Below, piece after piece: positions 17 to 14,752 of a stretch of DNA of 64,000 bases (its first letter is position 1; every line of letters begins with the position of its first letter). The notes under the pieces are model-generated. The model saw nothing but the letters and a program-made list of their open reading frames with translations, was not told where the DNA came from and ran no database searches. Origin of the DNA: Pseudomonadota bacterium. GTDB lineage: Bacteria > Pseudomonadota > Gammaproteobacteria > Burkholderiales > Burkholderiaceae_C. Position numbers and translations under genes: made by a program. The stretch is taken from positions 5,997-69,996 of the forward strand of contig JBMOQM010000056.1 of the NCBI GenBank assembly GCA_049322875.1, given 5' to 3'.

Positions 17-994
17 ATGTCGCTGTTCGGGAAGGTGAAGATGGGCTACCTGGTGGCCGAATCCAGCAGGCTCACCGAATGGCAGCGCTTCATGGGGGAC
101 GGGCTGGGCATGCACGTCGATGCCGTCGGGCAGGACCTGCTCGCCGGGCGGATCGATGCGCGCGAGCGCCGCTTCATCGTTCAGAAGGGGGCGCGGGAAG
201 ACGTGGCCGCCATCGGCTGGCAGCTCGCGGATGAGCCCGCGCTTGAACTGGCCTTGAGGCGCCTGCGTGAACGCGCCATTGATTTCCAGGAGGTTGGCGG
301 CCTGGAGGCAGGCGCGAGGGGCGTGGACCGTCTGTGGCGCATCAAGGGCCCCAAGGGCTTGGCCACCGAGCTGTTCATCCATGCTCGCTCGACCGCACAG
401 CCGCTGTCGATGAAGGCATCCGGTTTCATGACAGGCGAGGGCGGCATGGGCCATGTGGCTATCACCACCCGCCAGCCTGCGGCCATGCAGTCGTTCTGGA
501 AGGAGATCTTCGATGCGCGCCTGTCCGACCACATCGAGCAGCGCATCGACGGTGTCCAGCTGGAGCTGACTTTCCTTCGGCTCAATGAGCGCCACCACTC
601 GATCGCCACGGCGGCGACACGCGGCATCCGCCTGAACCCGCTGCGTACGCAGATCCACCACGTCAACCTGCAGACCGCTTCGCTGGACGATGTGATCCAT
701 GGCTACCTGCGTTGCCGTGCCATGGGCTACGACATCGCCAACGCCATCGGGCAGCACCCCAATGACCGTGAGCTGTCGTTCTACGTGGTGTCGCCCTCGG
801 GCTTCGAGGTCGAGCTGGGCTGGGATCCCATCGTGGTCGATGAGGCCCATTGGGTGCCCACCACTTACCAGGGCATGAGCCTGTGGGGGCACCGGCCCGA
901 GAACCTGACCCTGGCTTACAGGCTGGGTCGATTGAAGCAAGGCGTCACGTCGCTGATGCGTGATGAGTTCATGCCCGAAGGAGTTCAGCGATGA
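17..994 (+). CDS. Extradiol ring-cleavage dioxygenase (VOC family, BphC/HsaC-like)
   Basis: Two-domain VOC pattern; candidate Fe(II) ligands in GHVAI, HHVNL and EVELG; motifs NERHHSIA and IGQHPNDRELSFYVVSPSGFEVELG; stop overlaps the next start (ATGA at 991-994). Confidence 0.88.
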   Translation: MSLFGKVKMGYLVAESSRLTEWQRFMGDGLGMHVDAVGQDLLAGRIDARERRFIVQKGAREDVAAIGWQLADEPALELALRRLRERAIDFQEVGGLEAGARGVDRLWRIKGPKGLATELFIHARSTAQPLSMKASGFMTGEGGMGHVAITTRQPAAMQSFWKEIFDARLSDHIEQRIDGVQLELTFLRLNERHHSIATAATRGIRLNPLRTQIHHVNLQTASLDDVIHGYLRCRAMGYDIANAIGQHPNDRELSFYVVSPSGFEVELGWDPIVVDEAHWVPTTYQGMSLWGHRPENLTLAYRLGRLKQGVTSLMRDEFMPEGVQR

Positions 995-2754
995 CCGCCT
1001 GCATTGATCACCCACTGCCCAAGGGCAGTCAGGACACATCGGTCTATGACGTCGCGATCGTCGGGATGGGGCCGACCGGCCTGGTGCTGGCCCATGCGCT
1101 GGGCATGAACGGGCACCGCGTGGTGGTGCTCGAGAAGGAGCCTGTGTTCTACGGCAATGCGCGGGCCGTCTATACCGATGACGAGTGCATGCGCATCTTC
1201 CAGTCGCTGGGCATCGCCAAGGAGGTTCAGGCGCAGATGATGATGGACACGCCGGTGCAATTTGTGCGCCCTGATGGATCCCTCATGGCGCAGTACATGC
1301 CGCTCTCGCGCTACTTCGGCTGGCCGGTGGTGAACTTCTTTTACCAACCCTACCTGGAGACCACGCTGTCCAGCCAACTGGCGCGCTACCCCCATGTCGA
1401 GGTGCGCCGTGGCCGTGAGGTGGTCGATTTCAGCCAGGATGAGGCGGCCGTGACTGTCACACACCAGGCGACGCAGGAGGTGCGCTTCACGGAGTTCGGC
1501 GATTCGCGCAAACTCACGCGCGGCGACCTCGATGCGCAGACGCTTCGCGCCCGCTACCTGGTGGGCTGCGACGGCGGCCGCAGCGTGGTGCGCACGAAGC
1601 TGGGCATCGACATGACGGGCAAGAACTTCCCGGAACCCTGGCTGGTGGTGGATCTGCAGCGCAAGCCCGGTGTCGATGGCCTGCGCCACCTGCCGTATTT
1701 CAACTTCGTGGTCGACCCGGCCTTGCCGGTGGTCAGCTGTGTGCAGCCCGATGGTTTCCACCGCTTCGAGTTCATGCTGATGCCCGGCGAGACGAAGGAG
1801 AACATGGAGCGGCCCGAGACCGTGCGCCATTACCTCTCCAGGTTCATCGACCCGGATCAGTTCGAGATCAAGCGGCGCCTCGTCTATACCTTCAACGCCT
1901 TGATGGCGAAGGCGTGGCGACGCGACCGAGTCCTGCTGGCCGGTGATGCCGCGCACATGACGCCGCAGTTCATGGGCCAGGGCGCCAGCTCGGGCATCCG
2001 CGATGCCTACAACCTGGGCTGGAAGCTGGACCTGATCCTGAAGGGGCAGGTCAGTGAGCGGGTCCTCGACAGCTACGAGAAGGAACGCAAGGCCCACGCC
2101 CAGGCCATGATCGACGTGTCGGTGCTGCTCAAGGACATCGTGTCGATGACGCACCCCGTCGGCACGCTGGTCCGCGATGCTTTCATCGCTGTGTCCCAGT
2201 CGATCGGACCGCTCAAGCGCTTCTTCCGTGATGGGGGCTTCAAGCCGCTGCCCGTCTACAAGCGCGGCAGCTACCTGGGCATGCCGCGCAGTGGCTTGCG
2301 TGGCCCCGAGGGCGTGCTCTCTCCCCAGCCCGAGGTGCGCCTGTTCGACAGCACGCGTGTATTGCTGGACGACGTGATGGGGCCGGGCTTCTCGCTGATA
2401 GGCCTGAATGTCGATCCGCGCGAGTACCTGGATGGCACCAGCACGAGGATGCTCGAATCGCTCGGGGCCAGCTTCGTGACGCTGTACGCCTATGGCGAGC
2501 GCCCCCAGGGACTGCAAGGGGTTGAGCGCGATGTGCGGCTGGGCACGCTGGAAGTCGAGGACATCGGCGGCGTCATGGTCGAGTGGTTTCGCAAGGCCGG
2601 CTTCAAGGATCGTGCCGTGGCCGTGCTGCGCCCGGACAAATTCACGTTCGGTGTGGTGCAGCCCGAAGCTTTACCCAAGGTTCTGAGCGAGCTGGCCCAC
2701 CAGTTCGATGTGGCGGCGAGCAACGTCGTCCACCTGCCCAGAGAGGCGGCCTGA
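991..2754 (+). CDS. FAD-dependent aromatic hydroxylase, MhpA-like (paralog 1)
   Basis: GxGxxG (VGMGPTG), DG motif (GCDGGRS), GD motif (LAGDAAH..PQFMGQG), C-terminal VLRPD thioredoxin-like domain. Confidence 0.88.
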   Translation: MTACIDHPLPKGSQDTSVYDVAIVGMGPTGLVLAHALGMNGHRVVVLEKEPVFYGNARAVYTDDECMRIFQSLGIAKEVQAQMMMDTPVQFVRPDGSLMAQYMPLSRYFGWPVVNFFYQPYLETTLSSQLARYPHVEVRRGREVVDFSQDEAAVTVTHQATQEVRFTEFGDSRKLTRGDLDAQTLRARYLVGCDGGRSVVRTKLGIDMTGKNFPEPWLVVDLQRKPGVDGLRHLPYFNFVVDPALPVVSCVQPDGFHRFEFMLMPGETKENMERPETVRHYLSRFIDPDQFEIKRRLVYTFNALMAKAWRRDRVLLAGDAAHMTPQFMGQGASSGIRDAYNLGWKLDLILKGQVSERVLDSYEKERKAHAQAMIDVSVLLKDIVSMTHPVGTLVRDAFIAVSQSIGPLKRFFRDGGFKPLPVYKRGSYLGMPRSGLRGPEGVLSPQPEVRLFDSTRVLLDDVMGPGFSLIGLNVDPREYLDGTSTRMLESLGASFVTLYAYGERPQGLQGVERDVRLGTLEVEDIGGVMVEWFRKAGFKDRAVAVLRPDKFTFGVVQPEALPKVLSELAHQFDVAASNVVHLPREAA

Positions 2755-2786
2755 GCTCGCCATCCACCACCACTGAGGAGAACGAC

Positions 2787-3926
2787 ATGACAGGATCCGA
2801 ATTCCAAGATGCGAATGCCACGCGGGCCACCGGGCGCCGCCGCTTTCTGCAGGAAGCCGCCGGCCTGGCTGCCGCATCGGCGGCGGCCCTGGGCGGGGGC
2901 AGCCTGCCCGGTGTGGCCATGGCAGGCCTGGGTGGGGCTGGAGGCACACCGTTTCGCATCGACGTTCATTGCCACCACATCCCGGACTTCTACCGGCTGT
3001 CGATGGCCGCGCACGGCATCCTCACGGCGGGCGGCATTCCACTGCCCTTGTGGTCACCGACCATGGCTGTTAACTTCATGGACAAGTTCGGCATCCAGAC
3101 GCAGGTGGTGTCCATCTCGGAGCCAGGTGTCACCTACCTCAAGACCCTGGGCGATCGCAAGGCCATGGCGCAGCGCATCAACGACTACACGCGCGACGAG
3201 CTGGTCACCACCTCGGCCGCAGGGCTGGCCGGGCGCTTCGGCGGCTTCGGTGTGATGCCGATCCGCGATCCGCGCAACCCGCTGGATGTGCTTGCGGCCA
3301 GCGCAGAAGCGGTGCGGGTCGTCCAGCGTCTGCGGCTCGATGGCATCGGCTTGTTCAGCAACTATCAGGGCGTCTACCTGGGGCATCCATCGTTCGAGCC
3401 GTTGATGGCCACGCTCGATGCGCTGGGCGCCATGGTGTTCATCCATCCGGTCACGCCAACCGATCCGCCAGACCTGGGGCTGCCGTCCTTCCTGTACGAG
3501 TTCCCTTTCGACACGACCCGTGCGGCCGTGAACCTGCTCTACAAGGGCGTTCTCAACCGGTATCCCAACATCCGCTGGCTGCTGGCGCATGCGGGCGGCA
3601 CGATCCCTTACCTGTCGTACCGCACAGGGTTGCTGCGGCTGAACCTCGATCCCACCAGCAGTGTCTACAAGAACCTGTTCTTCGACACGGCCCTGTCCGC
3701 CGCGCCGCCGGCGATGAAGGCCGTGCGCGAGATCACGCCTGTCAGCCACGTGATGTTTGCCACCGACTGGCCTTTCGCTGGGCCGGTGTTCCTGACCAAG
3801 CCCGCGGGCGATCCGGCTGCGGAACTCGACCTGTCCTTCAACACCGAAGAGCGCCTGCTGGTGGACCGTCGCAACGCGCTGACGCAGCTGCCGACGCTCG
3901 CTGCGCGGCTTGGCGTAGCGCCCTGA
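2787..3926 (+). CDS. Amidohydrolase-2 family metalloenzyme (decarboxylase/hydrolase) with Tat signal peptide
   Basis: ATG at 2787 follows a GAGGAG RBS; GRRRFLQ + hydrophobic stretch + AMA; HxH (DVHCHH), FIHP, LAHAGG, FDTALS, FATDWPF. Confidence 0.85.
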   Translation: MTGSEFQDANATRATGRRRFLQEAAGLAAASAAALGGGSLPGVAMAGLGGAGGTPFRIDVHCHHIPDFYRLSMAAHGILTAGGIPLPLWSPTMAVNFMDKFGIQTQVVSISEPGVTYLKTLGDRKAMAQRINDYTRDELVTTSAAGLAGRFGGFGVMPIRDPRNPLDVLAASAEAVRVVQRLRLDGIGLFSNYQGVYLGHPSFEPLMATLDALGAMVFIHPVTPTDPPDLGLPSFLYEFPFDTTRAAVNLLYKGVLNRYPNIRWLLAHAGGTIPYLSYRTGLLRLNLDPTSSVYKNLFFDTALSAAPPAMKAVREITPVSHVMFATDWPFAGPVFLTKPAGDPAAELDLSFNTEERLLVDRRNALTQLPTLAARLGVAP

Positions 3927-3932
3927 AGCGGA

Positions 3933-4559
3933 TCAGCGCTTTGATGACGAGGGCAGGGGAGGCAGGTCCATGGTGGCCAGCGCGCGGGCTTCCGCGCGTG
4001 ACAAACCCAGCGCCACCAAGGTGAACTCGGCGGCATCCGCACCGGCCTCGCGCCAGGTCTTGATGCCTTCTAGAACGCTGAAGATGCTGCTGAGTACGGC
4101 ACCGGCCTGCAGCCCGATCACCGATGGCAACTGCTCCTGGCGGAAGTGGTAACGCCCGCTCTGCAGGCCTGCCATCAGATCTGTCACGGGCTGCCCTTCC
4201 CACACCTTGCGCAATGACTCGGCGTTGAAGGCATAGCGGCATATGAAGCGGCCCCAGTGCGGCTCTTCATGGGCGCGCCGGATGTACAGGCGGATGCCGT
4301 TGGCCAGGCGATGCGCGGGATCGGTGATGCCTTCGAAGCTGGCGGTGATGCGCCAGTTCATGTCGTCGGCGAGCTGCGCGGCCACCTCCTCGAACAGGTG
4401 GTCGGGGTCGTGCAGGTTGTTGTAGATGGTGCCGCGCGCCACGCCGGCCGCCTGTGCCAGCTCGCTGACGTTGACCTGGTTGATGCCACGTTCGGCGAAC
4501 AGCTTCAGCGCGGCGGCATGGATGCGTTGTTGAGCAGGTGTCAGGGCCGCCACGGGCAT
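3933..4559 (-). CDS. TetR-family transcriptional regulator
   Basis: N-terminal HTH (IHAAALKLFAERGINQVNVSELAQAAGVARGTIYNN). The start could instead be GTG at 4553, which has better GAGGA spacing. Confidence 0.88.
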   Translation of the reverse strand: MPVAALTPAQQRIHAAALKLFAERGINQVNVSELAQAAGVARGTIYNNLHDPDHLFEEVAAQLADDMNWRITASFEGITDPAHRLANGIRLYIRRAHEEPHWGRFICRYAFNAESLRKVWEGQPVTDLMAGLQSGRYHFRQEQLPSVIGLQAGAVLSSIFSVLEGIKTWREAGADAAEFTLVALGLSRAEARALATMDLPPLPSSSKR

Positions 4560-4613
4560 TCCTCGGTCATGGGGGAATCACAGGAGGCCCTATTGTCTCT
4601 TGAACGCCGGTGT

Positions 4614-5708
4614 TCAAAACACCTTGATCACCCGGATCTGATGGAAACTGCCCTGCTTGGCGTAGCGCGAGTCCGTGCTCTTCATGGTCTGCAGTGTCAC
4701 CACGGCATCGGCCACCGGCAGCTTGGTGGTGAAGAAGACGCCGGCGTTCGTCAGGCGCAGGCGGGCGTCGCCGTAAGGATTGCCGCTGTCGTCCTGTGTC
4801 TGCTGGATGTGGATGGCGTGCAGCCCGATGGGGCCCAACGGGGTCTTGTAGGCCACGGCACCTTCGAGCCCGAGCCAGTTGCCGCTGCGCAGGTCGTTGT
4901 CGCTGTTGCGTGTGTTGAAGCCCAGGGTCAGCTTGCCCGCCACGGCTACATTGGACTGCGGCATCCATGCCACCTGCACCGCCGGGCGGAAGGTGTAGAA
5001 GTTGCCGGTGCCCACGTCGGGGCCGGCTGCCGAGTCATAGCTGCCGGTGGGCAGCACGACGGATGCACCGGCCAGCACGCGCCAGCGCTCGTTGGCGTAC
5101 AACCAGCCGGCCTGCAGTTCGGTGTCGCCCATACCGGTGTCCTCGCCGGTCTCGCCGCTGGCCATGGCCTGGATCCTGGTGAGGTAGCTGCTCTCGAACT
5201 GCTGTGTCACGGCACCCTTGGTGGCCGGATTGGGGATGCTGCCGCTGGGCCAGTTCAGCGCCGGGGCGGTGGTGCGGGCGTTGAACGATTGGCTCTTGGC
5301 GCCGTACTGCAGGTTGAGCAGCATGGCGAGCCGCCCGCCGCCGTACTGCGCGGTCGTGATGTAGCCCAGGGCCAGGTTGTAGATGCGGAATCCGCCTCCG
5401 GCGTCCACTTCGATCTCCTTGGCACCATACGATGGGTCGTAAGGGGTGGGCGATGCGCCCAGTGCCACGGTGCCACCCGGCACGGCGACCTTGAGCCTGT
5501 GGCCGTCGCCGCCCGTCACCTTGTCGACATTGATGTAGGTGGCCGCGGCGCCGACACCCCAGCCCGTCTGGTCTGGGGGCGCGAACATTTCGCCGCCGAG
5601 CGAGCCGGCCACGTTGTAGCGCACCTGAAAGCCTTCGGCGGACAGCGCAGGCAGGGCGGCTGTCAGCAAGGCGGCGGCGCAAGCGCCATGGAATGGAACG
5701 GATTTCAT
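4614..5708 (-). CDS. Outer-membrane beta-barrel, SphA / MetA-pathway phenol-degradation family
   Basis: Signal peptide (..LPALSA); alternating beta strands; family-like DTELQAGWLY..ASVVLPTGSYD..GTGNFYTFRP; C-terminal Phe; ATG at 5708 follows CAGGAG. Confidence 0.75.
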   Translation of the reverse strand: MKSVPFHGACAAALLTAALPALSAEGFQVRYNVAGSLGGEMFAPPDQTGWGVGAAATYINVDKVTGGDGHRLKVAVPGGTVALGASPTPYDPSYGAKEIEVDAGGGFRIYNLALGYITTAQYGGGRLAMLLNLQYGAKSQSFNARTTAPALNWPSGSIPNPATKGAVTQQFESSYLTRIQAMASGETGEDTGMGDTELQAGWLYANERWRVLAGASVVLPTGSYDSAAGPDVGTGNFYTFRPAVQVAWMPQSNVAVAGKLTLGFNTRNSDNDLRSGNWLGLEGAVAYKTPLGPIGLHAIHIQQTQDDSGNPYGDARLRLTNAGVFFTTKLPVADAVVTLQTMKSTDSRYAKQGSFHQIRVIKVF

Positions 5709-5831
5709 CTCTCGTGTCTCCTGGTGGGTAGATGGGGGCAAGTGGTCGTTGCGGATGCACGTGCGTGTTCATCCGTGCCCTTCGTCTTGTCGACGGGGCT
5801 GGGTCGCAAAGGGAACAGGGAAGGCGGTGCG

Positions 5832-6908
5832 TTAGCGGTTGCGTGCGCGATCGGCCATCGCGATCACGGGCCGGATGGCCAGGTGCTTGAGGCGATCGCG
5901 CCAGCCCATGCCGCCGGCATGCGGCAGGGATCGCACCGTGTCGCCGCTGCCGGCGAGGTGGGGGAACAGGGCCAGAGCATTGGCGCGGTCGATGCCTGCT
6001 CGCTGCTCCGTGGTGAAGAACGGCAGTTCATCCAGCTGCCTGGTCTGCAGGCCGGTGACGGGCTCCGGTGCGAAGGGGAAGTCACTGCCGAAGAGGATCT
6101 TCGATGGATCGACCAGCTCCTTGAGCGCTGCCATGGCAAATGGCGAGGGCGACAGGGCCGTGTCGAACCAGAAGCGCTTGAGGTAGGCCAGGACGCCCTG
6201 GGGCGCCTTTTCGTAAGTTTCGGGCAGCATGTTGGCCAGCGACAGACGCCAGGCCACGTAAGGGGTGAACCCACCTGCATGCGCCAGGATCCAGCGGATC
6301 CGGGGATGGCGCTCCATCGTGCCCGACAGGATCAGGTTGGTCGCGGCCCGCGTGGTGTCACACAGGAACTCGATCAGGAAGCCCGGCATGTCCAGGCGCA
6401 GTTGCGTGCTGGTGGCGTGCAGGTTGGGATGCACGAACACGGTCGCTTCGCGCCGGTCCAGCTCGGCCATCAACTCATCGAACCGGGGATCGCCCAGGAA
6501 ATAGCCTTCGGTGCTGCCCAGCAGCACGATGCCGTCTGCGCGCAGTTCATCGAGGGCGCGTACGGCTTCCCGACAGGCTTGCGCCGTGAGGGGCATTGGC
6601 AACACGGCGAAGAAGCCGAAGCGTCCGGGATGTGCCTGCACGGTCTGCGCGCAGAAGTCGTTGCACGACTGGGCGAGCGACACCGCCTTGCGTTCGTCTC
6701 CAAAAAAGACGCCCGGCGCGGACAGCGAGAGCAAAGCCGTCTCGATACCCTGCATGTTCATCAGATCAAGCGAGCGTTGCGGCGTCCATTGGGGCAAAGG
6801 GGCACCAGCCACCAGGGACAGCCCCTGATCCTTCATGGTCTGAGCGAAGGTGGGGGGAATCACATGGTGGTGAACGTCGATGCGTCGGTGTTGGGGGCGG
6901 GCGGTCAT
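5832..6908 (-). CDS. Amidohydrolase-2 family enzyme (aromatic-acid decarboxylase/hydrolase-like), cytoplasmic
   Basis: RIDVHHHVIPP, VFVHP, LAHAGG, FDTALS, FGSDFPF; no signal peptide. Confidence 0.87.
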   Translation of the reverse strand: MTARPQHRRIDVHHHVIPPTFAQTMKDQGLSLVAGAPLPQWTPQRSLDLMNMQGIETALLSLSAPGVFFGDERKAVSLAQSCNDFCAQTVQAHPGRFGFFAVLPMPLTAQACREAVRALDELRADGIVLLGSTEGYFLGDPRFDELMAELDRREATVFVHPNLHATSTQLRLDMPGFLIEFLCDTTRAATNLILSGTMERHPRIRWILAHAGGFTPYVAWRLSLANMLPETYEKAPQGVLAYLKRFWFDTALSPSPFAMAALKELVDPSKILFGSDFPFAPEPVTGLQTRQLDELPFFTTEQRAGIDRANALALFPHLAGSGDTVRSLPHAGGMGWRDRLKHLAIRPVIAMADRARNR

Positions 6909-7027: not shown

Positions 7028-8053
7028 ATGAGTACGTACCAAGAATCGGTACCGGCGCGGTACATCGCCGGGTTGGTGCAGGCGCTGACACGGCAAGGCC
7101 ATGACTGCAATCCCGTCTTGAAGGCGGCGAAGCTGTCATCGGCTGCCCTGTCATTGCCTGATGCGCGCATCCCGCGTGAACGCATGGCCGCGCTGCTCAT
7201 CGGCCTCAGCCTGGCGACCGGGCGCAGCGACCTGGGGTTCGAGATGGGCCGTCAGATCGATGTGACGGCCTACCCGTTGCTGGGCCAGTTGCTGCGCACG
7301 GCCAGGGACCTGGGCGAGGGCCTGCAGCGACTGGTCCCTTACATCCCCTTGATCACACCGTCCTTCCGCGTGCACTGCGAGATCGTCGATGGCGAACTGC
7401 ACATGCGCTGGCAGCTACTCAGGCCCATGCCTTACGACATGATGAAGATGGCCTGCGAGTGCATCCTGGTGGCCTCTTGCATGGGCCTCAGGCAGCTCTT
7501 TCCATCGAAGGCGGTGACGCTGACCGCATGCGTGCCCTGGTCACCCCCTCAGCATGCACGGCGCTACAGCGAGCTGCCTGGGCTGACGATGCGTTACCAG
7601 GCCGAGGCCATGCAGATCGGCGTGTGTCTGATCGTGCCTGAGGCCCTCGTGCGATGGGCCATGCCACGATCGAACAGCAGGGTATGGCGCAGCGCACACG
7701 CCGCCTGCGCGGAGGAACTGCGCCACCTGCAGTCCATGCACCGCTGGGCAGACTGGGTGGCCCATGTGCTCGACGTCGTCGAGGACCACCAGCCCAGCCA
7801 GGCCGAGCTGGCCAGCCTGATGGGCATCGCCCCTCGCACGCTGGCCCGTCACCTGGAGACCGAAAGCGTCAGCTACAAGTCGCTGGTGCTGGACATCCGG
7901 CACCGACGTGCGTGCCGTCTGCTGGGCACCAGCGACATCACCGTGTCGGAGCTGGCGCGCCTGCTGGGCTACAACGACAGCGCCAACTTCGCCCGTGCGT
8001 TCAAGGCGCGGGAAGGGCGCACGCCCACGCAGTACCGGCAGTCGCTGGGGTGA
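7028..8053 (+). CDS. AraC-family transcriptional regulator (OruR/ArgR-type N-terminal domain)
   Basis: C-terminal double HTH: MGIAPRTLARHL..ITVSELARLLGYNDSANFARAFK..GRTPTQYR. Confidence 0.9.
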   Translation: MSTYQESVPARYIAGLVQALTRQGHDCNPVLKAAKLSSAALSLPDARIPRERMAALLIGLSLATGRSDLGFEMGRQIDVTAYPLLGQLLRTARDLGEGLQRLVPYIPLITPSFRVHCEIVDGELHMRWQLLRPMPYDMMKMACECILVASCMGLRQLFPSKAVTLTACVPWSPPQHARRYSELPGLTMRYQAEAMQIGVCLIVPEALVRWAMPRSNSRVWRSAHAACAEELRHLQSMHRWADWVAHVLDVVEDHQPSQAELASLMGIAPRTLARHLETESVSYKSLVLDIRHRRACRLLGTSDITVSELARLLGYNDSANFARAFKAREGRTPTQYRQSLG

Positions 8054-8080
8054 GTGGGCGCGGAGGGTGTTGATGGGCGC

Positions 8081-8869
8081 TCAGTTGTCCGGGCCGAAAG
8101 GATTGGCCGGCAGCGCGATGTCGGGCAACGGGCGCCGTGCCACCTCGTGTGCATCGGCAGCCGGCAGGCCCAGCAGCTGCAGCACCAGCACTGTGATGCG
8201 CTCGCCAATGTTCTTGGTGTCCTGCAGCATCGGGAAAGGCAAGCTGCGCCCGGCCTTCAGCTCCACTTCCGTGGCCAGCGCGCCCAGCACGATGCTGCCC
8301 ACGGCAACGAAGGTGGCGGCCGGGTCGTCGATCCGGAAGCGCTTGCGCGCGATGCCATCGGCCAGATCCTGCAGAAAGTAGCGGCCCATGCCTGCGCTCA
8401 CGCCATCGGCCGTGAAGCCCGAGCGCACCACGAAACGTCCCCACAGCGGATCCTGCTGGCCGCGCTTAATGACATAGCGGATGCAGCCCGCGATCTTCTC
8501 GGCGGGATCCTGGATCTGCTCGCTCAGGTGGTCGAGCGCGCCGGCGAACTGCCCTACCACTTCCGTGATCAGGGCCTCGTAGACCGCTTCTTTCGATGGG
8601 AAGTGGTTGTAGAAGGAGCCGAAGCCCACATCGGCGGCCTCGGTGATCTCGTTGATCGCCACGCCGTCCACCCCCTTGTCCGCCATCAGGCGCAGGGCCG
8701 CGCCAAGCAGGCGCGCGCGGGTGTCCCGCTTGCGGCGAGCACCGCGGGGCTCGCGTGCGGGCGCTTCTGCTTCTTCGGCGATGGGGGCTGCCGCCGCCTT
8801 GGCAGGGGCGGTCCTGGCTGTCTTGCGGGGCGTGGTCTTCGGGGCGGTCTTGGCGGCGGCCGGGGGCAT
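8081..8869 (-). CDS. TetR-family transcriptional regulator with a low-complexity N-terminus
   Basis: RARLLGAALRLMADKGVDGVAINEITEAADVGFGSFYNHF HTH. Confidence 0.9.
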   Translation of the reverse strand: MPPAAAKTAPKTTPRKTARTAPAKAAAAPIAEEAEAPAREPRGARRKRDTRARLLGAALRLMADKGVDGVAINEITEAADVGFGSFYNHFPSKEAVYEALITEVVGQFAGALDHLSEQIQDPAEKIAGCIRYVIKRGQQDPLWGRFVVRSGFTADGVSAGMGRYFLQDLADGIARKRFRIDDPAATFVAVGSIVLGALATEVELKAGRSLPFPMLQDTKNIGERITVLVLQLLGLPAADAHEVARRPLPDIALPANPFGPDN

Positions 8870-8921
8870 GGGGACGCGTCTCCTTCACAACAGAGGGCTT
8901 TGCTCAAGTATAGGGTATTCC

Positions 8922-8950
8922 ATAATCTTCATCAAAACTGATGAAATTAT
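8922..8950. promoter_or_regulatory. Probable TetR operator in an AT-rich divergent promoter
   Basis: ATAAT-c-TTCATCA-AAAC-TGATGAA-ATTAT inverted repeat between tetR (8869) and mhpA-like 2. Confidence 0.55.
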
Positions 8951-9016
8951 CATTCATGAGGAATTTATACAAATGTGCAGGTCGGCATGACGACCGCACG
9001 CTTTCTTCGGTTTGAG

Positions 9017-10636
9017 ATGTCCATGCCATCTGCTGTTCCACATCCCCAGGTGCTCGTCGTCGGGCTGGGCCCGGTCGGGGCCACCATCTGCAACCTGCTC
9101 GGACGCCAGGGCATCCGCACCCTGGCCATCGACCGGGCCACCGAGGTGTTTGCCGCGCCACGCGCCATCGCGCTGGACAACGAGGCGCTGCGCATCCTGC
9201 AGATGTGCGGCCTGCAAGAGGGGGATTTCGACACCATCGCCATCCCTCATGTGCGCATGCATTCGCCCTTCTTCGGGCAGTTCGCCATGGCCAATGCCTT
9301 CGGGCCGCAAGACGGGCATCCCAAGCTGGTGACCTTCTTCCAGCCCGAGCTCGAAGCCGTGCTGCGGCAGCGCCTGCAGGATCACGCCAGCGTGCAGGTG
9401 CGGCTGGGCACGACGCTGACGGGCCTGCGGCAGGATGCCGATGGCGCCTGGGCCGAACTGGGTATCGGGGGCGTGGCCTGCACCGTGCGGGCCGACTACG
9501 TGATCGCGGCCGATGGTGCCAACTCCACCGTGCGCCAACTGCTGGGCCAGCGCTTCGAGGGGCAGACCTTTCCTGAGGATTGGCTGGTCGTGGACGCGAA
9601 GAAGGTGCCCAAGCCCATCGACCACGTCGAGTTTCTGTGCAGCCACCAGAGGCCCGTGCCGCACATGGTGGCGCCCGGTGACCGGCAACGCTGGGAGTTC
9701 AAGCTGCGGCGCGGCGAGACGCGCGAACAGATGGAGCGGCCGGACACCATCCGCGAATTGCTGGCCCCCTGGGGCACGCCGGAAGAGATCGACATCGAGC
9801 GCGTGGCGGTCTACCGCTTCCATGCGCGCATCACCGAATCCTTCTCATCGGGGCGCGTTTTCCTGGCGGGCGATGCGGCCCATATCACGCCGCCCTTTGT
9901 GGGGCAGGGATTGGTGGCCGGTCTGCGCGACGCGGGCAATCTGTGCTGGAAGCTGGCCTGGGTGCTCAAGGGCCATGCGGCGCCGGGCATCCTGTCGACC
10001 TACAACCAGGAGCGCCGCCCGCACGTGGTGGCCATGGTGCGCCTGGCCACCTTCATGGGGCGGCTGGTGATGCCGGGCACGGCGTTGGGCGCGTGGGTCA
10101 CGCACGGGTTGATGTCGATGCTGCGCCTGGTGCCGCGCCTGCGCCGCCTGCTGGAGGAGTTGGAGATCAAGCCTGTGCACTGCTTCAAGCACGGGTTGTT
10201 CGCGACAGGCGGTGCGTCACGCCTTCGCCGTGGTGGGCTGTTCGCGCAGGGCTGGGTGCGAAAGGGGTTGGGCGATGCGCCCGTGCTCAGCGATGCCGTG
10301 CTGGGCGAGCACATGACGGTGATCGGCTTCGGCGTGGACCCGACGCGCCATCTGGATGCAGGCCTCGCTGACCAATGGCTGCGCGCGGGTGGTCGGTTCG
10401 TGCAGATCGATCCACGGGGCCGCGCGTGTACGCCTTCGTCCTGCGAGCGCTGGGAGGATGTCAGCGGCGACCTGATGCCGCGCTATGCCCCCATGGACTG
10501 GCTCGCCATCGTGCGGCCGGACCGCGCGGTGATCCACGACGGCCCGGCGCCCTGCGCGGCGCGCCTGATCCGCGAAACGCTGGACCTGTTGACCCCCTCG
10601 CGCAGCCGTCCCCAATGGCAGTTGCTGCGCAACTGA
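9017..10636 (+). CDS. FAD-dependent aromatic hydroxylase, MhpA-like (paralog 2)
   Basis: VVGLGPVG, AADGANS, LAGDAAHITPPFVGQG, IVRPD. Start is 9017 or 9023; the upstream ATGs lie in the promoter region. Confidence 0.88.
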   Translation: MSMPSAVPHPQVLVVGLGPVGATICNLLGRQGIRTLAIDRATEVFAAPRAIALDNEALRILQMCGLQEGDFDTIAIPHVRMHSPFFGQFAMANAFGPQDGHPKLVTFFQPELEAVLRQRLQDHASVQVRLGTTLTGLRQDADGAWAELGIGGVACTVRADYVIAADGANSTVRQLLGQRFEGQTFPEDWLVVDAKKVPKPIDHVEFLCSHQRPVPHMVAPGDRQRWEFKLRRGETREQMERPDTIRELLAPWGTPEEIDIERVAVYRFHARITESFSSGRVFLAGDAAHITPPFVGQGLVAGLRDAGNLCWKLAWVLKGHAAPGILSTYNQERRPHVVAMVRLATFMGRLVMPGTALGAWVTHGLMSMLRLVPRLRRLLEELEIKPVHCFKHGLFATGGASRLRRGGLFAQGWVRKGLGDAPVLSDAVLGEHMTVIGFGVDPTRHLDAGLADQWLRAGGRFVQIDPRGRACTPSSCERWEDVSGDLMPRYAPMDWLAIVRPDRAVIHDGPAPCAARLIRETLDLLTPSRSRPQWQLLRN

Positions 10637-10665
10637 TTCGATCACCCGATCCCGCAGGCTTTCCC

Positions 10666-11742
10666 ATGACTTTGCTCACCACCCCACAACCCGCGCGCCA
10701 CGCCAGCCCCACCGTCAAGGCGCGGCGCCTGGCCTACCTGATGTTCGAGCGCCCCGATCTGGACCGGGCGGAAACCTTCCTGCAGGATTTCGGCCTGCGC
10801 ACGGCGCACAAGAGCGCATCGACGCTGTTCATGCGCGCGGCCGATGCCTCGCCGTTCTGCTACCGTATCGAGCGAGGGCGCAAGGCCGCCTTCATGGGCT
10901 TCGGCCTGGAGGTGGGCAGCAGAGAAGACCTGTTGCGCCTGTCCACATTGCAACCCGGTGCGAGCCTCCAGAAGGCCCAAGGCCCAGGTGGTGGTGAACT
11001 GCTGCGCCTGGCCGATCCATCGGGCTTCGCCGTCGAAGCCGTGCATGGCCAGGCACGCGGCGCGCCATTGACACCTCACCGCGGGCTGTTGCCCTGGAAC
11101 CTGGGTGACCAGCACCCACGCGTCAACGACACGCAGCGCCCGCCCGCTGTGCCGCCCGATGTGCTCAAGCTTGGCCATGTGGTGCTGGAGGTGGCCGATT
11201 TCCAGGCCACCTGCGCCTGGTACACGCGGCACTTCGGCTTCATTCCCAGCGATGTGCAGGTGCTGCCCGATGGCTCGCCCGCCGTGACCTTCCTGCGGCT
11301 GGACCTGGGCGACACGCCGGCCGACCACCACACGCTGGCACTGGCCCAGGGCTTCATGCCCACCTACAGCCACAGCGCCTTCGAGGTGCTGGACACCGAC
11401 GCCGTGGGCATGGGCCAGCGCGTGCTGCGCGAGCGCGGCTGGCGACATGCCTGGGGCATGGGGCGGCACATCCTGGGCAGCCAGGTGTTCGACTACTGGC
11501 AGGACCCCTGGGGCGACAAGCACGAGCACTACTGCGATGGTGACCTGTTCACGGCCGACCTGCGCACCGGTGTCTTCCCGGTCAGCCGCGAAGCCATGTC
11601 GCAATGGGGGCCGCCCATGCCGGCCAGCTTCACCAAGCCCAGCCTGTCGCCCGCCAACCTCAAGGCGATGTGGCGCAGTCTGCGACGCAGCCCGGATGTC
11701 ACCGTGGCCAAGCTGGTGCAACTGGCCCGGCTGTTCGCCTGA
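10666..11742 (+). CDS. VOC-family ring-cleavage dioxygenase (trihydroxy-aromatic oxygenase, DntD/HcdB-like)
   Basis: LAYLMFERPDL, KLGHVVLEV, DHHTLAL, SHSAFEV, WGMGRHILGSQVFDYWQDPWGDKHEHYCDGD. Confidence 0.8.
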   Translation: MTLLTTPQPARHASPTVKARRLAYLMFERPDLDRAETFLQDFGLRTAHKSASTLFMRAADASPFCYRIERGRKAAFMGFGLEVGSREDLLRLSTLQPGASLQKAQGPGGGELLRLADPSGFAVEAVHGQARGAPLTPHRGLLPWNLGDQHPRVNDTQRPPAVPPDVLKLGHVVLEVADFQATCAWYTRHFGFIPSDVQVLPDGSPAVTFLRLDLGDTPADHHTLALAQGFMPTYSHSAFEVLDTDAVGMGQRVLRERGWRHAWGMGRHILGSQVFDYWQDPWGDKHEHYCDGDLFTADLRTGVFPVSREAMSQWGPPMPASFTKPSLSPANLKAMWRSLRRSPDVTVAKLVQLARLFA

Positions 11743-11783
11743 TCCGCCTTCTTTCATCTTCCACCGTATACAAGGCACATGCC

Positions 11784-12740
11784 ATGGCCATTCACGTCGT
11801 TCGTTATTCGCACCAGGGGCAGACCCGCTGGGGCGTGCTCGATCAGGGACGCATCGCACCCATCGATGGCGATTACGCCACCACCGCCGATCTGGTGCGC
11901 GCGCACAGCGCCACCTCGCTGGCCGGCCACCTCGGGCACGGCGGTATCGATCTGGCCGCGGTGCGCGTGCTCTCACCGGTCACCAGCAACCAGCAGTTCG
12001 TCTGCCAGGGCGCCAACTACCGCCAGCACATGATCGAGTCGGGCATGGACCCCGATGCCAAGCACTTCAACATGATCTTCACCAAGGCTTCGAGTTGCAT
12101 CGTGCCAGCCGACAGCCCCGTGGTACGGCCTGCCCATGTGCGTTTCCTGGACTACGAGATCGAGCTGGGCCTGGTGATCAAGCGCGACATCACCACACCG
12201 GTGAAGGTGACGGACGTGAACCTGCACGAGTTCATCGCCGGCGTGGTCATCGTCAACGACTACTCCGCGCGCGATGTGCAGATCCCGCAGATGCAGTTCT
12301 ACAAGGGCAAGAGCTACCGCACCTTCGGGCCGGTGGGCCCCGTGCTGTGTCTGCTCGCGCCTCAGGAGATGCACTACCTGTCCAAGCTGAACCTCACGCT
12401 CAAGGTCAATGGTGGCGTGCGCCAGCAAGACAGCACCGCGAACCTGGTGCACCGCCCGCCCGAGACGTTGACCGAGTTGTCCGGCGTGCACGACCTGTTC
12501 GGCGGCGACTTGATTGCCACAGGCACGCCCTCGGGCTGCGCACTGTCGATTCCCTCGCCATTCAAGCAGCGCATCGGCGCGCTGTTGCCCGAGAAAAAGA
12601 AGTGGGAGATCTTCATGAAGGTGCAGGCCCAGCGTGCGCAATACCTCAAGCCGGGCGATGTCGTCGAGGCCGAGATCCGCAGCGCCGATGGCGTGGTGCA
12701 ACTGGGCGTGCAGCGCAACGTCGTGCAGGAGCAGGCATGA
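11784..12740 (+). CDS. Fumarylacetoacetate-hydrolase family protein
   Basis: CQGANY, IFTKASS, LDYEIELGLVI, VNDYSARD, KGKSYRTFGPVGP, GDLIATGTPSG. Confidence 0.9.
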   Translation: MAIHVVRYSHQGQTRWGVLDQGRIAPIDGDYATTADLVRAHSATSLAGHLGHGGIDLAAVRVLSPVTSNQQFVCQGANYRQHMIESGMDPDAKHFNMIFTKASSCIVPADSPVVRPAHVRFLDYEIELGLVIKRDITTPVKVTDVNLHEFIAGVVIVNDYSARDVQIPQMQFYKGKSYRTFGPVGPVLCLLAPQEMHYLSKLNLTLKVNGGVRQQDSTANLVHRPPETLTELSGVHDLFGGDLIATGTPSGCALSIPSPFKQRIGALLPEKKKWEIFMKVQAQRAQYLKPGDVVEAEIRSADGVVQLGVQRNVVQEQA

Positions 12741-14752
12741 GCCGCGGCATTGCCTCCATGGCCGATGTGCTGGCGTTGGAAGCCGCTGGCATGCCTGATC
12801 TGCCCGCCAGCACCTACGAGATGATCGGGCGCAGCGCGAAGGCGCATCCGGAACGGCCTGCGCTTTCGTTCTTCCTGCGCACGCAGGACCATGCCCGGCC
12901 CGAAGTGTGGTCCTACCGTCGCTTCTTCGAGCGCATCACCCAGGCCGCGAACCTCTTCCATGGTCTGGGCATCGGGCCGAACGATGTGGTGGCCTTCGTG
13001 CTGCCCAGCCTGCCTGAAACGCACTTCACGATCTGGGGCGGGCAGGCCGCCGGCATCGCTTACGCCGTCAACCCCTTGCTGGAGCCGCAGGCCATCGCCG
13101 ATCTGCTGGTGGCTGGTGGCGCGACGGTGCTGGTCACGCTGGCACCGTTTCCCGGTACCGATCTGTGGTGCAGGCTGCAGGGCGTCCTGCACCAGGTGCC
13201 CGCGCTTCGGCACGTGGTGCTGGTCAACCTGGCCGACCGGGTGCGGGGCCCGAAGAAACTGGCCGCGCGCTGGCTGCAGCGGCGTGAAACACGACGCCTG
13301 CATGGCCGATCGGGGCTGGCCGGTGCCGTGCCGGACTGGGTGCATTTGCACGACTTCAACAAGGCGCTGAGGCGGCAACCCGCCGACAGACTCGTCAGCG
13401 GCCGCGTCATCCAGCCCGACGATCTTTCGTCCTACTTCTGTACGGGTGGCACCACCGGCCTGCCCAAGATCGCGATGCGACGGCACCGCAACGAAGTGGC
13501 CAATGCGTGGAGCGCCGCGCAGTTCCTGGGCGATGGCATCAGCACAGACAAGAACATTTTCTGTGGCCTGCCGCTGTTCCACGTCAACGCCGCGATGGTG
13601 ACTGGCCTCACGCCGTTCTCACGCGGCGCGCACGTGATCCTGGGCACGCCCCAGGGCTACCGGGGCGAAGGGGTGGTGCCCAGGTTCTGGGAGCTGGTGC
13701 ATCGCCACCACATCCATTTCTTCAGCGGCGTGCCTACGCTCTACGCCACGCTGATGCAATACCCCACCGAGGGGCACGACATCAGCAGCCTGGAGTACGG
13801 CCTGTGCGGTGCCGCGCCCATGCCGGTGGAGCTGATGAACACCTTCCAGGAGCGCACCGGGCTCAAGATTCTGGAGGGTTACGGCCTTACCGAAGGCACC
13901 TGCGTGAGCTCCACCAATCCACCGTTGGGTGATCGCAGGCTGGGCTCCATCGGCATTCGTCTGCCCTTGCAGCGCATGAAGACCGTGCTGCTGGACGACC
14001 AGGGCGCCTATGTGCGTGACTGCGATCCTGGCGAGGTCGGGACCATCCTGATCGAAGGCGCCAACGTATTCGCTGGCTACAAGGAGGCCGCGCACAACCA
14101 GGGCCTGTGGGTGGGGCTGCCGGATGGGCAATGCTGGCTCAACACCGGCGATCTGGGGCGCATGGACGAGCAGGGCTACTTCTACCTCACGGGCCGCAAG
14201 AAGGAGTTGATCATCCGGGGCGGTCACAACATCGACCCGGCCAGCATCGAAGAGCCCTTGCACAAGCATCCGGCGGTGCAACTGGCCGCGGCCATCGGTT
14301 GGCCGGACGAGCATGCGGGTGAGTTGCCCGTGGCCTATGTGCAGCTCAAGCCCGGGGCATCAGCCACCGAGGCCGAACTGCTGGACTTCGCCCAACGCCA
14401 CATCACCGAACGCGCGGCGCTGCCCAAGGCCATTCGCGTGATCGAGCAGATGCCGCTCACGGGCGTCGGCAAGATCTTCAAGCCGGCGCTCAAGGAGCAG
14501 GCGTGCCATGAGGCGCTTAGCCAGGCGTTGAGAAGGGCGGGCATTGACGCGCCAATGCTGTCCGTGAGCCAGCACCCGAAGTTTGGCCTCTTTGTGCAGC
14601 TCACCGTGCACGATGCCTCTGTGGAGGAGGCGCGGGCTGTTCTTGGGCGCTTTCCGTTTCAGTTCGCGATCGAACCGCTTGGTGTTCTGGTGGACCGAAG
14701 GAGGATCGAACTCCCGACCTCTGCATTGCGAACGCAGCGCTCTCCCAACTGA
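12737..14752 (+). CDS. Acyl-CoA synthetase (AMP-forming); the last ~21 codons are antisense to tRNA-Ala
   Basis: FCTGGTTGLPK AMP-binding loop, EGYGLTE, NTGDLG, GRKKELIIRGG, GVGKIFK; ATG 12737 overlaps the FAH stop (ATGA). Confidence 0.9.
   Translation: MSRGIASMADVLALEAAGMPDLPASTYEMIGRSAKAHPERPALSFFLRTQDHARPEVWSYRRFFERITQAANLFHGLGIGPNDVVAFVLPSLPETHFTIWGGQAAGIAYAVNPLLEPQAIADLLVAGGATVLVTLAPFPGTDLWCRLQGVLHQVPALRHVVLVNLADRVRGPKKLAARWLQRRETRRLHGRSGLAGAVPDWVHLHDFNKALRRQPADRLVSGRVIQPDDLSSYFCTGGTTGLPKIAMRRHRNEVANAWSAAQFLGDGISTDKNIFCGLPLFHVNAAMVTGLTPFSRGAHVILGTPQGYRGEGVVPRFWELVHRHHIHFFSGVPTLYATLMQYPTEGHDISSLEYGLCGAAPMPVELMNTFQERTGLKILEGYGLTEGTCVSSTNPPLGDRRLGSIGIRLPLQRMKTVLLDDQGAYVRDCDPGEVGTILIEGANVFAGYKEAAHNQGLWVGLPDGQCWLNTGDLGRMDEQGYFYLTGRKKELIIRGGHNIDPASIEEPLHKHPAVQLAAAIGWPDEHAGELPVAYVQLKPGASATEAELLDFAQRHITERAALPKAIRVIEQMPLTGVGKIFKPALKEQACHEALSQALRRAGIDAPMLSVSQHPKFGLFVQLTVHDASVEEARAVLGRFPFQFAIEPLGVLVDRRRIELPTSALRTQRSPN

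Follow-up and report, generated by a model that had tools for sequence, protein, structure and literature searches.

The ACMSD/LigW family comprises textbook cytoplasmic enzymes of lignin and aromatic valorisation and of NAD metabolism, and to our knowledge all characterised Amidohydro_2 members of the ACMSD/LigW type are cytoplasmic. The locus described here raises the question of whether one branch of this family works outside the inner membrane and, if so, what it does there. The stretch analysed, referred to below as the window, comprises 64,000 nucleotides of contig JBMOQM010000056.1 (assembly GCA_049322875.1, positions 5,997 to 69,996 of the forward strand) from a Pseudomonadota bacterium of the Burkholderiaceae_C. 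The gene in question (2787..3926, plus strand; identified from the open reading frame (ORF) translation and Pfam) encodes an Amidohydro_2 protein of 379 residues, P0001, which includes a predicted twin-arginine translocation (Tat) signal. The explanation that we favour, with a probability of about 50% for the whole, is that P0001 is an exported, cofactor-independent enzyme that carries out a pre-uptake step ahead of an MhpA-like hydroxylase.

The predicted Tat signal peptide (residues 1-46; 2787..2924, plus strand) was recognised by its sequence anatomy, by its conservation and by the low predicted local distance difference test (pLDDT) values of residues 1-55 in the AlphaFold (AF2) model, in which pLDDT is 82 overall and above 90 in the barrel. 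A polar n-region (residues 1-16) is followed by R17-R18-R19-F20-L21-Q22 (2835..2852, plus strand), a twin-arginine motif that fits the RRxFLK consensus; residues 15-22 read T-G-R-R-R-F-L-Q, compared with (S/T)-R-R-x-F-L-K. Next come an uncharged h-region of Ala, Gly and Leu (residues 24-43) and the tripeptide A44-M45-A46, with signal cleavage predicted after A46. No charged residue occurs throughout residues 24-56, and a Gly-rich linker after the signal leads to the onset of the barrel, R57-I-D-V-H61-C-H63. A preliminary description of this DNA had noted a GRRRFLQ twin-arginine motif, a hydrophobic core and an AMA site, and all three are present in the 379-residue translation.

Whether translation starts downstream of the arginine pair was also checked. 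A Shine-Dalgarno sequence, GAGGAG (2775..2780, plus strand), lies 6 nt 5' of the ATG at 2787 and serves that codon, and no ribosome site precedes the in-frame starts further in (GTG 2913 and ATG 2919, codons 43 and 45). The gene in front ends at 2754, at a distance of 33 nt from the Tat gene. The frame is open in the 5' direction to GTG 2583, but use of that codon would create a 170-nt overlap with the monooxygenase gene. Database homologs that came from other gene-calling pipelines have an N-terminus of the same length as that of P0001.

Because a GC-rich genome yields N-termini rich in Arg and Ala, the chance background was measured on the ORFs of at least 300 aa of this genome. A crude rule (RR plus h-region) matched 9.7% of them and a stricter rule 2.9%, and on account of this background of about 10% the crude rule was exchanged for the stricter one. 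Among the 120 best homologs (52-94% identity), an N-terminal extension, defined as at least 25 N-terminal residues, was found in 115, and 112 of these 115 passed the strict rule. The consensus of the Tat-bearing homologs is (S/G)-R-R-x-L-L-K. An AxA-like cleavage site was observed in 81 homologs and a lipobox cysteine in its place in 31, for which the predicted lipobox is a second, independent export feature. In an alignment of 31 sequences (55-94% identity), R17 and R18 are invariant amid a drifting remainder of the peptide, as would be expected of a working signal, and about 95% of homologs, low-GC lineages included, retain the three-part layout.

The same picture was obtained from 80 genomic loci, fetched independently from species-representative genomes. 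The signal is encoded in frame 5' of the barrel in approximately 77 of the 80; two loci (L032 and L046) are without it and one (L045) was not parsed. These loci belong to the Burkholderiales, Alcanivorax, Nevskia, Streptomyces, Kitasatospora, Nocardioides, Nocardia, Gordonia, Rhodococcus, Amycolatopsis, Tsukamurella, Williamsia and Dietzia. TatC is also encoded in the genome studied here (E 1.4e-68, contig C15). Taken from the sequence, the export of P0001 by the Tat system is predicted as highly probable.

Some observations were made in passing on the rule and on individual homologs. The regular expression used for the Tat rule produced one likely false positive in a non-coding upstream sequence (L075_p8830, in the L075:8830 region) and false negatives at L027, L031, L037, L043 and L062, where Asp or Glu breaks a short h-region. 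The longer Tat-bearing relatives P0130, P0132 and P0078 were scanned with Pfam, and no second domain hinting at a substrate was detected in these three. In the metagenome-assembled genome (MAG) of an Alcanivorax sp., two exported amidohydrolase copies, 58-59% identical to P0001, stand in tandem (L004:6276-9005); the second (7749-9005) has the RR motif, the lipobox LAVAGCG and a long linker rich in Ser, Thr, Asn and Gly before the barrel. This pair adjoins wax-ester synthase and acyltransferase genes and a hydrolase - dioxygenase - hydroxylase set.

The window also encodes a paralog of P0001, designated P0002 (358 aa; 5832..6908, minus strand), which is the first gene of a minus-strand run. Both proteins match Pfam Amidohydro_2 and share 40% identity across 330 residues (E 6e-68), and the blocks that the preliminary description had claimed for the pair, RIDVHxH, DTTRAAxNL, IRWxLAHAGG and FDTALS, were all found in both. 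P0002 starts 9 residues before the barrel and is therefore without a signal. Since signal-less paralogs in general start 3-10 residues before the barrel, the extension of 45-60 residues is itself a character of the clade.

The extent of that clade was determined from 387 relatives at E 1e-30 or better, found in a search of 1.84 billion cluster representatives; at E 1e-10 or better there are roughly 2,660. Every full-length representative carries the signal down to approximately E 1e-55, beyond which Tat-bearing and signal-less sequences are interleaved. A maximum-likelihood tree (quick search, LG+G4) was built from 166 barrel domains with the signal left out. P0001 falls in a clade with a Shimodaira-Hasegawa-like approximate likelihood ratio test (SH-aLRT) support of 98, in which 25 of the 26 rows are Tat-bearing, and which is nested in a clade of support 95 with 50 Tat-bearing rows out of 57. 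In the remainder of the tree the signal occurs in 20 of the 108 rows, scattered, one of them (L075_p8830) being probably a false positive of the rule, and at least 10 state changes are required by the starred branches. As predicted signals map on the tree, the picture is thus one of a single large exported clade plus several independent gains of the signal. A phylogeny had been proposed for asking whether Tat-bearing members group together, and they do form a major clade.

P0002 belongs to a separate clade (support 99). The earlier idea of an exported enzyme paired with a cytoplasmic copy was upheld in one part: at least two amidohydrolase genes occur in 30 of the 80 loci (tblastn), and wherever the second gene was extracted it begins directly at the barrel, without a signal. 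A shared chemistry of the two paralogs is not supported: they lie in different well-supported clades.

As to what the enzyme does, the Pfam Amidohydro_2 (PF04909) match covers residues 58-332 (82.9 bits against a cut-off of 26.4, E 4e-23), and no NCBIfam model matches either P0001 or P0002. The (beta/alpha)8 barrel (2955..3923, plus strand) is supported by this match, by invariant columns, by alignments and by the AF2 model. Five residues are invariant in the 31-sequence alignment: H61 (2967-2969), H63 (2973-2975), H220 (3444-3446), H268 (3588-3590) and D327 (3765-3767), all codons on the plus strand. In a profile alignment they coincide with IDIHSH, FVHP, AHGGG and GTDYPF of human ACMSD, and they were also aligned to 2f6k. 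The layout, with HxH on strand 1, His on strand 5, the catalytic His on strand 6 and Asp on strand 8, is, as aligned, the set of metal ligands and catalytic residues of the ACMSD family. All defining features examined were found in P0001, which on its sequence is assigned to the ACMSD/LigW branch of Amidohydro_2.

By sequence, the best solved relatives are 2f6k, ACMSD, LigW, IDCase and gamma-resorcylate decarboxylase. An exhaustive comparison of the P0001 model with solved structures gave the following order: 2f6k (function unknown; Z 36.7, root-mean-square deviation 2.4 over 299 residues), LigW and IDCase (both Z 32.6), ACMSD (Z 31.7) and the 2,3-dihydroxybenzoate (2,3-DHB) decarboxylase DHBD (Z 31.1). 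Below these are the hydrolase LigY (Z 28.2), the hydratase LigJ (Z 27.1) and the dinuclear oxygenases TruffO, AibH and PtmU3 (Z 26-27), and the LigI-type/COG3618 lactonases come far behind (Z 16-19.6). LigI-type lactonases were absent from the sequence matches at E 0.01 or better. PtmU3 was matched at E 0.0036, and the ligand set of P0001 fits the mononuclear ACMSD type. The nearest relatives of known function, by both sequence and structure, are all non-oxidative decarboxylases, at identities of only about 20-25%. In the ESM Atlas, a cluster of 57 proteins, mostly of Bacteroidota, has an antibiotic biosynthesis monooxygenase (ABM) domain fused to a similar Amidohydro_2 barrel (TM 0.85); this fusion possibly hints at a coupled oxygenase and decarboxylase chemistry.

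The role is narrowed by the position of the gene. The window opens in the middle of an operon whose start lies approximately 4.6 kb before window position 1, and the 6 kb upstream of the window was fetched (L081, G000:C56:1-6100). In the coordinates of L081, and on the same strand as the Tat gene, this segment encodes a 2-keto-4-pentenoate hydratase (1368-2162), an acetaldehyde dehydrogenase (2252-3205), a 4-hydroxy-2-oxovalerate aldolase (3225-4262), a short-chain dehydrogenase/reductase (SDR; 4259-5047) and an HsaD/BphD-like alpha/beta hydrolase (5084-5977). The operon continues in the window with a BphC/HsaC-like two-domain extradiol dioxygenase (17..994, plus strand) and a phenol hydroxylase of the MhpA subfamily, dependent on flavin adenine dinucleotide (FAD), of 587 aa (991..2754, plus strand; NF004829, 432.8 bits against a cut-off of 390), whose gene overlaps the stop of the dioxygenase gene. 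The whole is a nine-gene mhp-like meta-cleavage operon of closely spaced genes, of which the Tat gene is the last. The pairing of BphC/HsaC-like and HsaD/BphD-like enzymes with MhpD/E/F indicates a 3-substituted catechol that yields 2-hydroxypentadienoate, and an operon of this kind closed by a Tat gene narrows the likely role of P0001 to a funnelling step before the phenol hydroxylase.

Three other assignments were tried for this region and rejected. A LigY-type amidohydrolase replacing the meta-cleavage hydrolase was discarded on account of the HsaD/BphD-like enzyme encoded just upstream of the window; with a classical alpha/beta hydrolase in the operon, neither amidohydrolase is needed for meta-cleavage hydrolysis. 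An orcinol/orsellinate pathway was rejected because its products (acetylpyruvate) need no MhpD/E/F enzymes such as those present here, and an HbpA-type hydroxylase because no HbpA structure was among the PDB matches at E 1e-20 or better.

In this genome the operon looks horizontally acquired. A homolog was found in 4 of the 24 same-genus genomes searched (E 1e-40 or better, 52-59% identity), so that the operon is accessory in the genus, and the closest genomic relative is a Burkholderiales MAG (L001; 71%) with the same gene order.

The context recurs well beyond this genome. When all ORFs of the 80 loci were clustered, with no families chosen beforehand, the most frequent neighbours were an FAD monooxygenase (the MhpA-subfamily hydroxylase; 63 of the 80 loci), an alpha/beta hydrolase (57) and an extradiol dioxygenase (56), followed by a hydratase (43), an acetaldehyde dehydrogenase and an aldolase (30 each) and a major facilitator superfamily (MFS) transporter (14); TetR regulators are further recurrent neighbours. 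By tblastn, both the dioxygenase and the hydroxylase lie within 8 kb in 56 of the 80 loci, in Proteobacteria and Actinobacteria. The exported gene comes immediately after the aldolase gene, in the same orientation, in Nocardia (L061) and Nevskia (L035), and in Streptomyces it adjoins an SSF transporter and a hydroxylase - hydrolase - dioxygenase set; the hydroxylases of both arrangements belong to the MhpA subfamily.

Downstream of the operon, the minus-strand run of P0002, a Phenol_MetA_deg (SphA/MetA-type) outer-membrane channel (4614..5741, minus strand) and a TetR regulator (3933..4559, minus strand) heads towards the Tat gene, with which the TetR gene is convergent. An AraC-family regulator (7028..8053, plus strand) is divergent from P0002, and a second TetR gene is at 8081-8869 (minus strand). 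About 5 kb downstream of the Tat gene there is a second MhpA-subfamily hydroxylase (8975-10636), followed (region 8975-14752) by a VOC dioxygenase, an FAH-family hydrolase (11604-12740) and an AMP-binding ligase. With this second hydroxylase/dioxygenase set, the region holds two parallel phenol-hydroxylase/ring-cleavage modules.

Starting from what is observed, namely the anatomy and conservation of the signal, the clade, the conserved operon and the complete set of catalytic residues, we infer actual export, metal loading before export, the type of reaction and the substrate as follows. P0001 would fold and bind its metal in the cytoplasm, and the Tat system would then move the folded protein across the inner membrane and release it to the periplasm after a cut behind A-M-A46; members in other lineages would be soluble or lipoproteins. 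By analogy, the use of Tat and not of Sec would suit an enzyme obliged to bind Mn2+ or Zn2+ as it folds in the cytoplasm. MncA is a precedent for metal acquisition during cytoplasmic folding before Tat export, and LigW and gamma-resorcylate decarboxylase are Mn-dependent. Because the periplasm is without NAD(P)H and ATP, an exported enzyme is limited to metal-only chemistry; the remaining operon enzymes are confined to the cytoplasm by their need for NAD(P)H, FAD, O2/Fe2+ and CoA.

The reaction that we propose, as a plausible though tentative reading of the sequence and its relatives, is a non-oxidative decarboxylation that converts an aromatic acid into a phenol. Outside the inner membrane the enzyme would decarboxylate a hydroxy-aromatic acid, for example a substituted salicylate. 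An anion that does not permeate would thereby become a neutral phenol, substituted in the ortho or meta position, which would diffuse inward and be hydroxylated by the MhpA-like enzyme. MhpA-type hydroxylases accept ortho- or meta-substituted phenols. Substrate that enters the cell unchanged, or a related acid, may be handled by the signal-less paralog. The salicylate candidate is one to which an automatic name also points, as several homologs and the nearest ESM-Atlas cluster are called '6-methylsalicylate decarboxylase'. This name is shared with the fungal enzyme PatG (EC 4.1.1.52) by automatic transfer; the PatG reaction yields a 3-substituted phenol from a 6-substituted salicylate, a product that would be well suited to a BphC/HsaD-type meta pathway entered through an MhpA-like hydroxylase, although PatG itself is intracellular and biosynthetic, not catabolic.

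Several points weigh against this reading. Meta-cleavage genes are missing from the vicinity in about one locus in four, as in those of the Aquabacterium type (L020-L024), one of which (L021) has no informative neighbours. In the window the outer-membrane channel gene is grouped with the cytoplasmic paralog and TetR and not with the exported enzyme; the preliminary description had the substrate entering through the SphA channel and meeting the exported enzyme first, and this part is not supported, the channel gene being co-oriented with P0002 and TetR rather than with P0001. Identity to characterised enzymes reaches about 25% at most (2f6k, function unknown), and because of this distance the choice of a decarboxylase over a hydrolase or hydratase rests on the ranking of distant relatives and on automatic names. 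With regard to the signal, the h-region is rich in Ala and Gly and weakly hydrophobic. Codon statistics, moreover, give no added support, since the GC content at third codon positions (GC3) is 0.70 in the signal region and 0.85 in the barrel; GC content at the first and second positions of the signal region is raised by Ala, Gly and Arg, and the statistics are uninformative.

The alternative that survives best, although we consider it unlikely, is that P0001 is an exported hydrolase or hydratase that opens an ester, lactone or amide of a conjugated phenolic (for example a dihydrocoumarin-type lactone or a phenolic ester) on the outer side of the membrane, the released acid being then imported and hydroxylated by the MhpA-like enzyme. 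The same scaffold supports both a C-C hydrolase, LigY, and a hydratase, LigJ, and hydroxyphenylpropionates, established substrates of MhpA-type hydroxylases, are formed in coumarin catabolism when the lactone is opened. The second module of MhpA-like hydroxylase, dioxygenase and FAH-family hydrolase 5 kb downstream would also accord with such a substrate, as would the SSF or MFS transporters for anionic products found in some loci. Set against these are the closest neighbours of known function, which in structure and sequence are all decarboxylases, and the Asp on strand 8 (D327), which is as in the decarboxylases; LigY and LigJ have Glu at the strand-8 position. The LigI/COG3618 lactonases are far more distant, a structural distance that may still leave lactonase chemistry possible.

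Less likely still is a protein that is exported but has a protective function, detoxifying uncoupling phenolic acids or leaked reactive intermediates, or whose substrate is unrelated to the operon. Such a role would suit the quarter or so of the loci that have no meta-cleavage genes within 8 kb, some of which adjoin only LysR, NmrA-like and TetR genes, and the several gains of Tat signals in the wider subfamily (at least 10 forced state changes) suggest varied extracytoplasmic uses. It is harder to reconcile with a gene that stands in line, on the same strand and directly after pathway genes in the window, in Nocardia and in Nevskia, and with the association with MhpA, dioxygenase and hydrolase genes in 56 of the 80 loci of two phyla. 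That the N-terminal peptide is no working signal, and that the enzyme stays in the cytoplasm as a plain second paralog through a later start or retention, is very improbable: the roughly 10% of false positives under the crude RR rule in a GC-rich genome, the weakly hydrophobic h-region, the signal-region GC3, which is not gene-like, and the established cytoplasmic location of characterised family members would agree with it, but the ribosome site in front of the upstream ATG, the lack of one ahead of codons 43 and 45, the invariant arginines and three-part architecture despite drift, the joint presence of RR motif and lipobox cysteine in 31 homologs and the clade-specific extension speak against it.

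P0001 can be placed among known systems. The ACMSD-family decarboxylases (LigW, gamma-resorcylate decarboxylase, 2,3-DHB decarboxylase, IDCase and ACMSD; PF04909, COG2159) share with it the (beta/alpha)8 fold (Z 31-33) and the HxH / His / His / Asp set, and they perform cofactor-independent chemistry on aromatic or unsaturated acids with a role in aromatic catabolism. They differ in their low identity (17-26%) and in being cytoplasmic and without a signal, whereas the clade of P0001 has a Tat signal and sometimes a lipobox. The best sequence match, 2f6k (the 'amidohydrolase II' of Lactobacillus plantarum, structural-genomics target LpR24; profile E 4e-33), has the same HxH barrel start, but is about 25% identical and has no signal peptide; because no function is assigned to it, none can be transferred. 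LigY, the OH-DDVA meta-cleavage product hydrolase, belongs to the same family, Amidohydro_2, and acts in a meta-cleavage pathway; it lacks a signal peptide, however, and its Z-score is below those of the decarboxylases. P0001 is unfit for a role of the LigY type, since the lower pathway is cytoplasmic and out of reach of an exported enzyme.

Tat export is already known elsewhere in the amidohydrolase superfamily. The OPH/PTE of Brevundimonas is a Tat-dependent lipoprotein. Pseudomonas aeruginosa PA2699 (Amidohydro_3) was shown to be a Tat-dependent exoprotein (PMC4899797). Both are metal-dependent TIM-barrel hydrolases exported in the folded state, and in metal dependence, fold and folded export they resemble P0001 as predicted here; they differ in their Pfam families (PF07969 for PA2699 and PF02126 for OPH/PTE), in their binuclear or other active sites and in having no link to a meta-cleavage operon. 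In the open-access literature, including a 2026 Tat review and a metallostasis review, we found no Tat-exported Amidohydro_2 enzyme and no periplasmic non-oxidative decarboxylase, PA2699 being the only nearby case. What appears to be new, as judged from the signals and gene neighbourhoods, is a large clade, predicted to be exported, of a family regarded as cytoplasmic, whose genes keep company with a defined catabolic module; the conserved signal is shared by hundreds of relatives from two phyla. One step in the breakdown of aromatic compounds therefore probably takes place outside the cell membrane.

A more general proposal, which we regard as rather doubtful at present, is that this is a widespread, unrecognised strategy of Proteobacteria and Actinobacteria, in which a Tat-exported metalloenzyme of the ACMSD family would decarboxylate aromatic acids, or unmask them in some other way, outside the membrane, the neutral phenol would enter without a dedicated transporter and feed an MhpA/BphC/HsaD-type pathway, and the paralog would handle intact import. 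The operon context predicts the class of product, ortho- or meta-substituted phenols, so that the hypothesis is open to ordinary genetics and enzymology. The clade is a natural test case for Tat-dependent metal selection, and it offers secreted, cofactor-free (de)carboxylases that may be attractive as biocatalysts. With so large an exported clade, aromatic catabolism would gain a compartment, with funnelling taking place partly in the periplasm or outside the cell.

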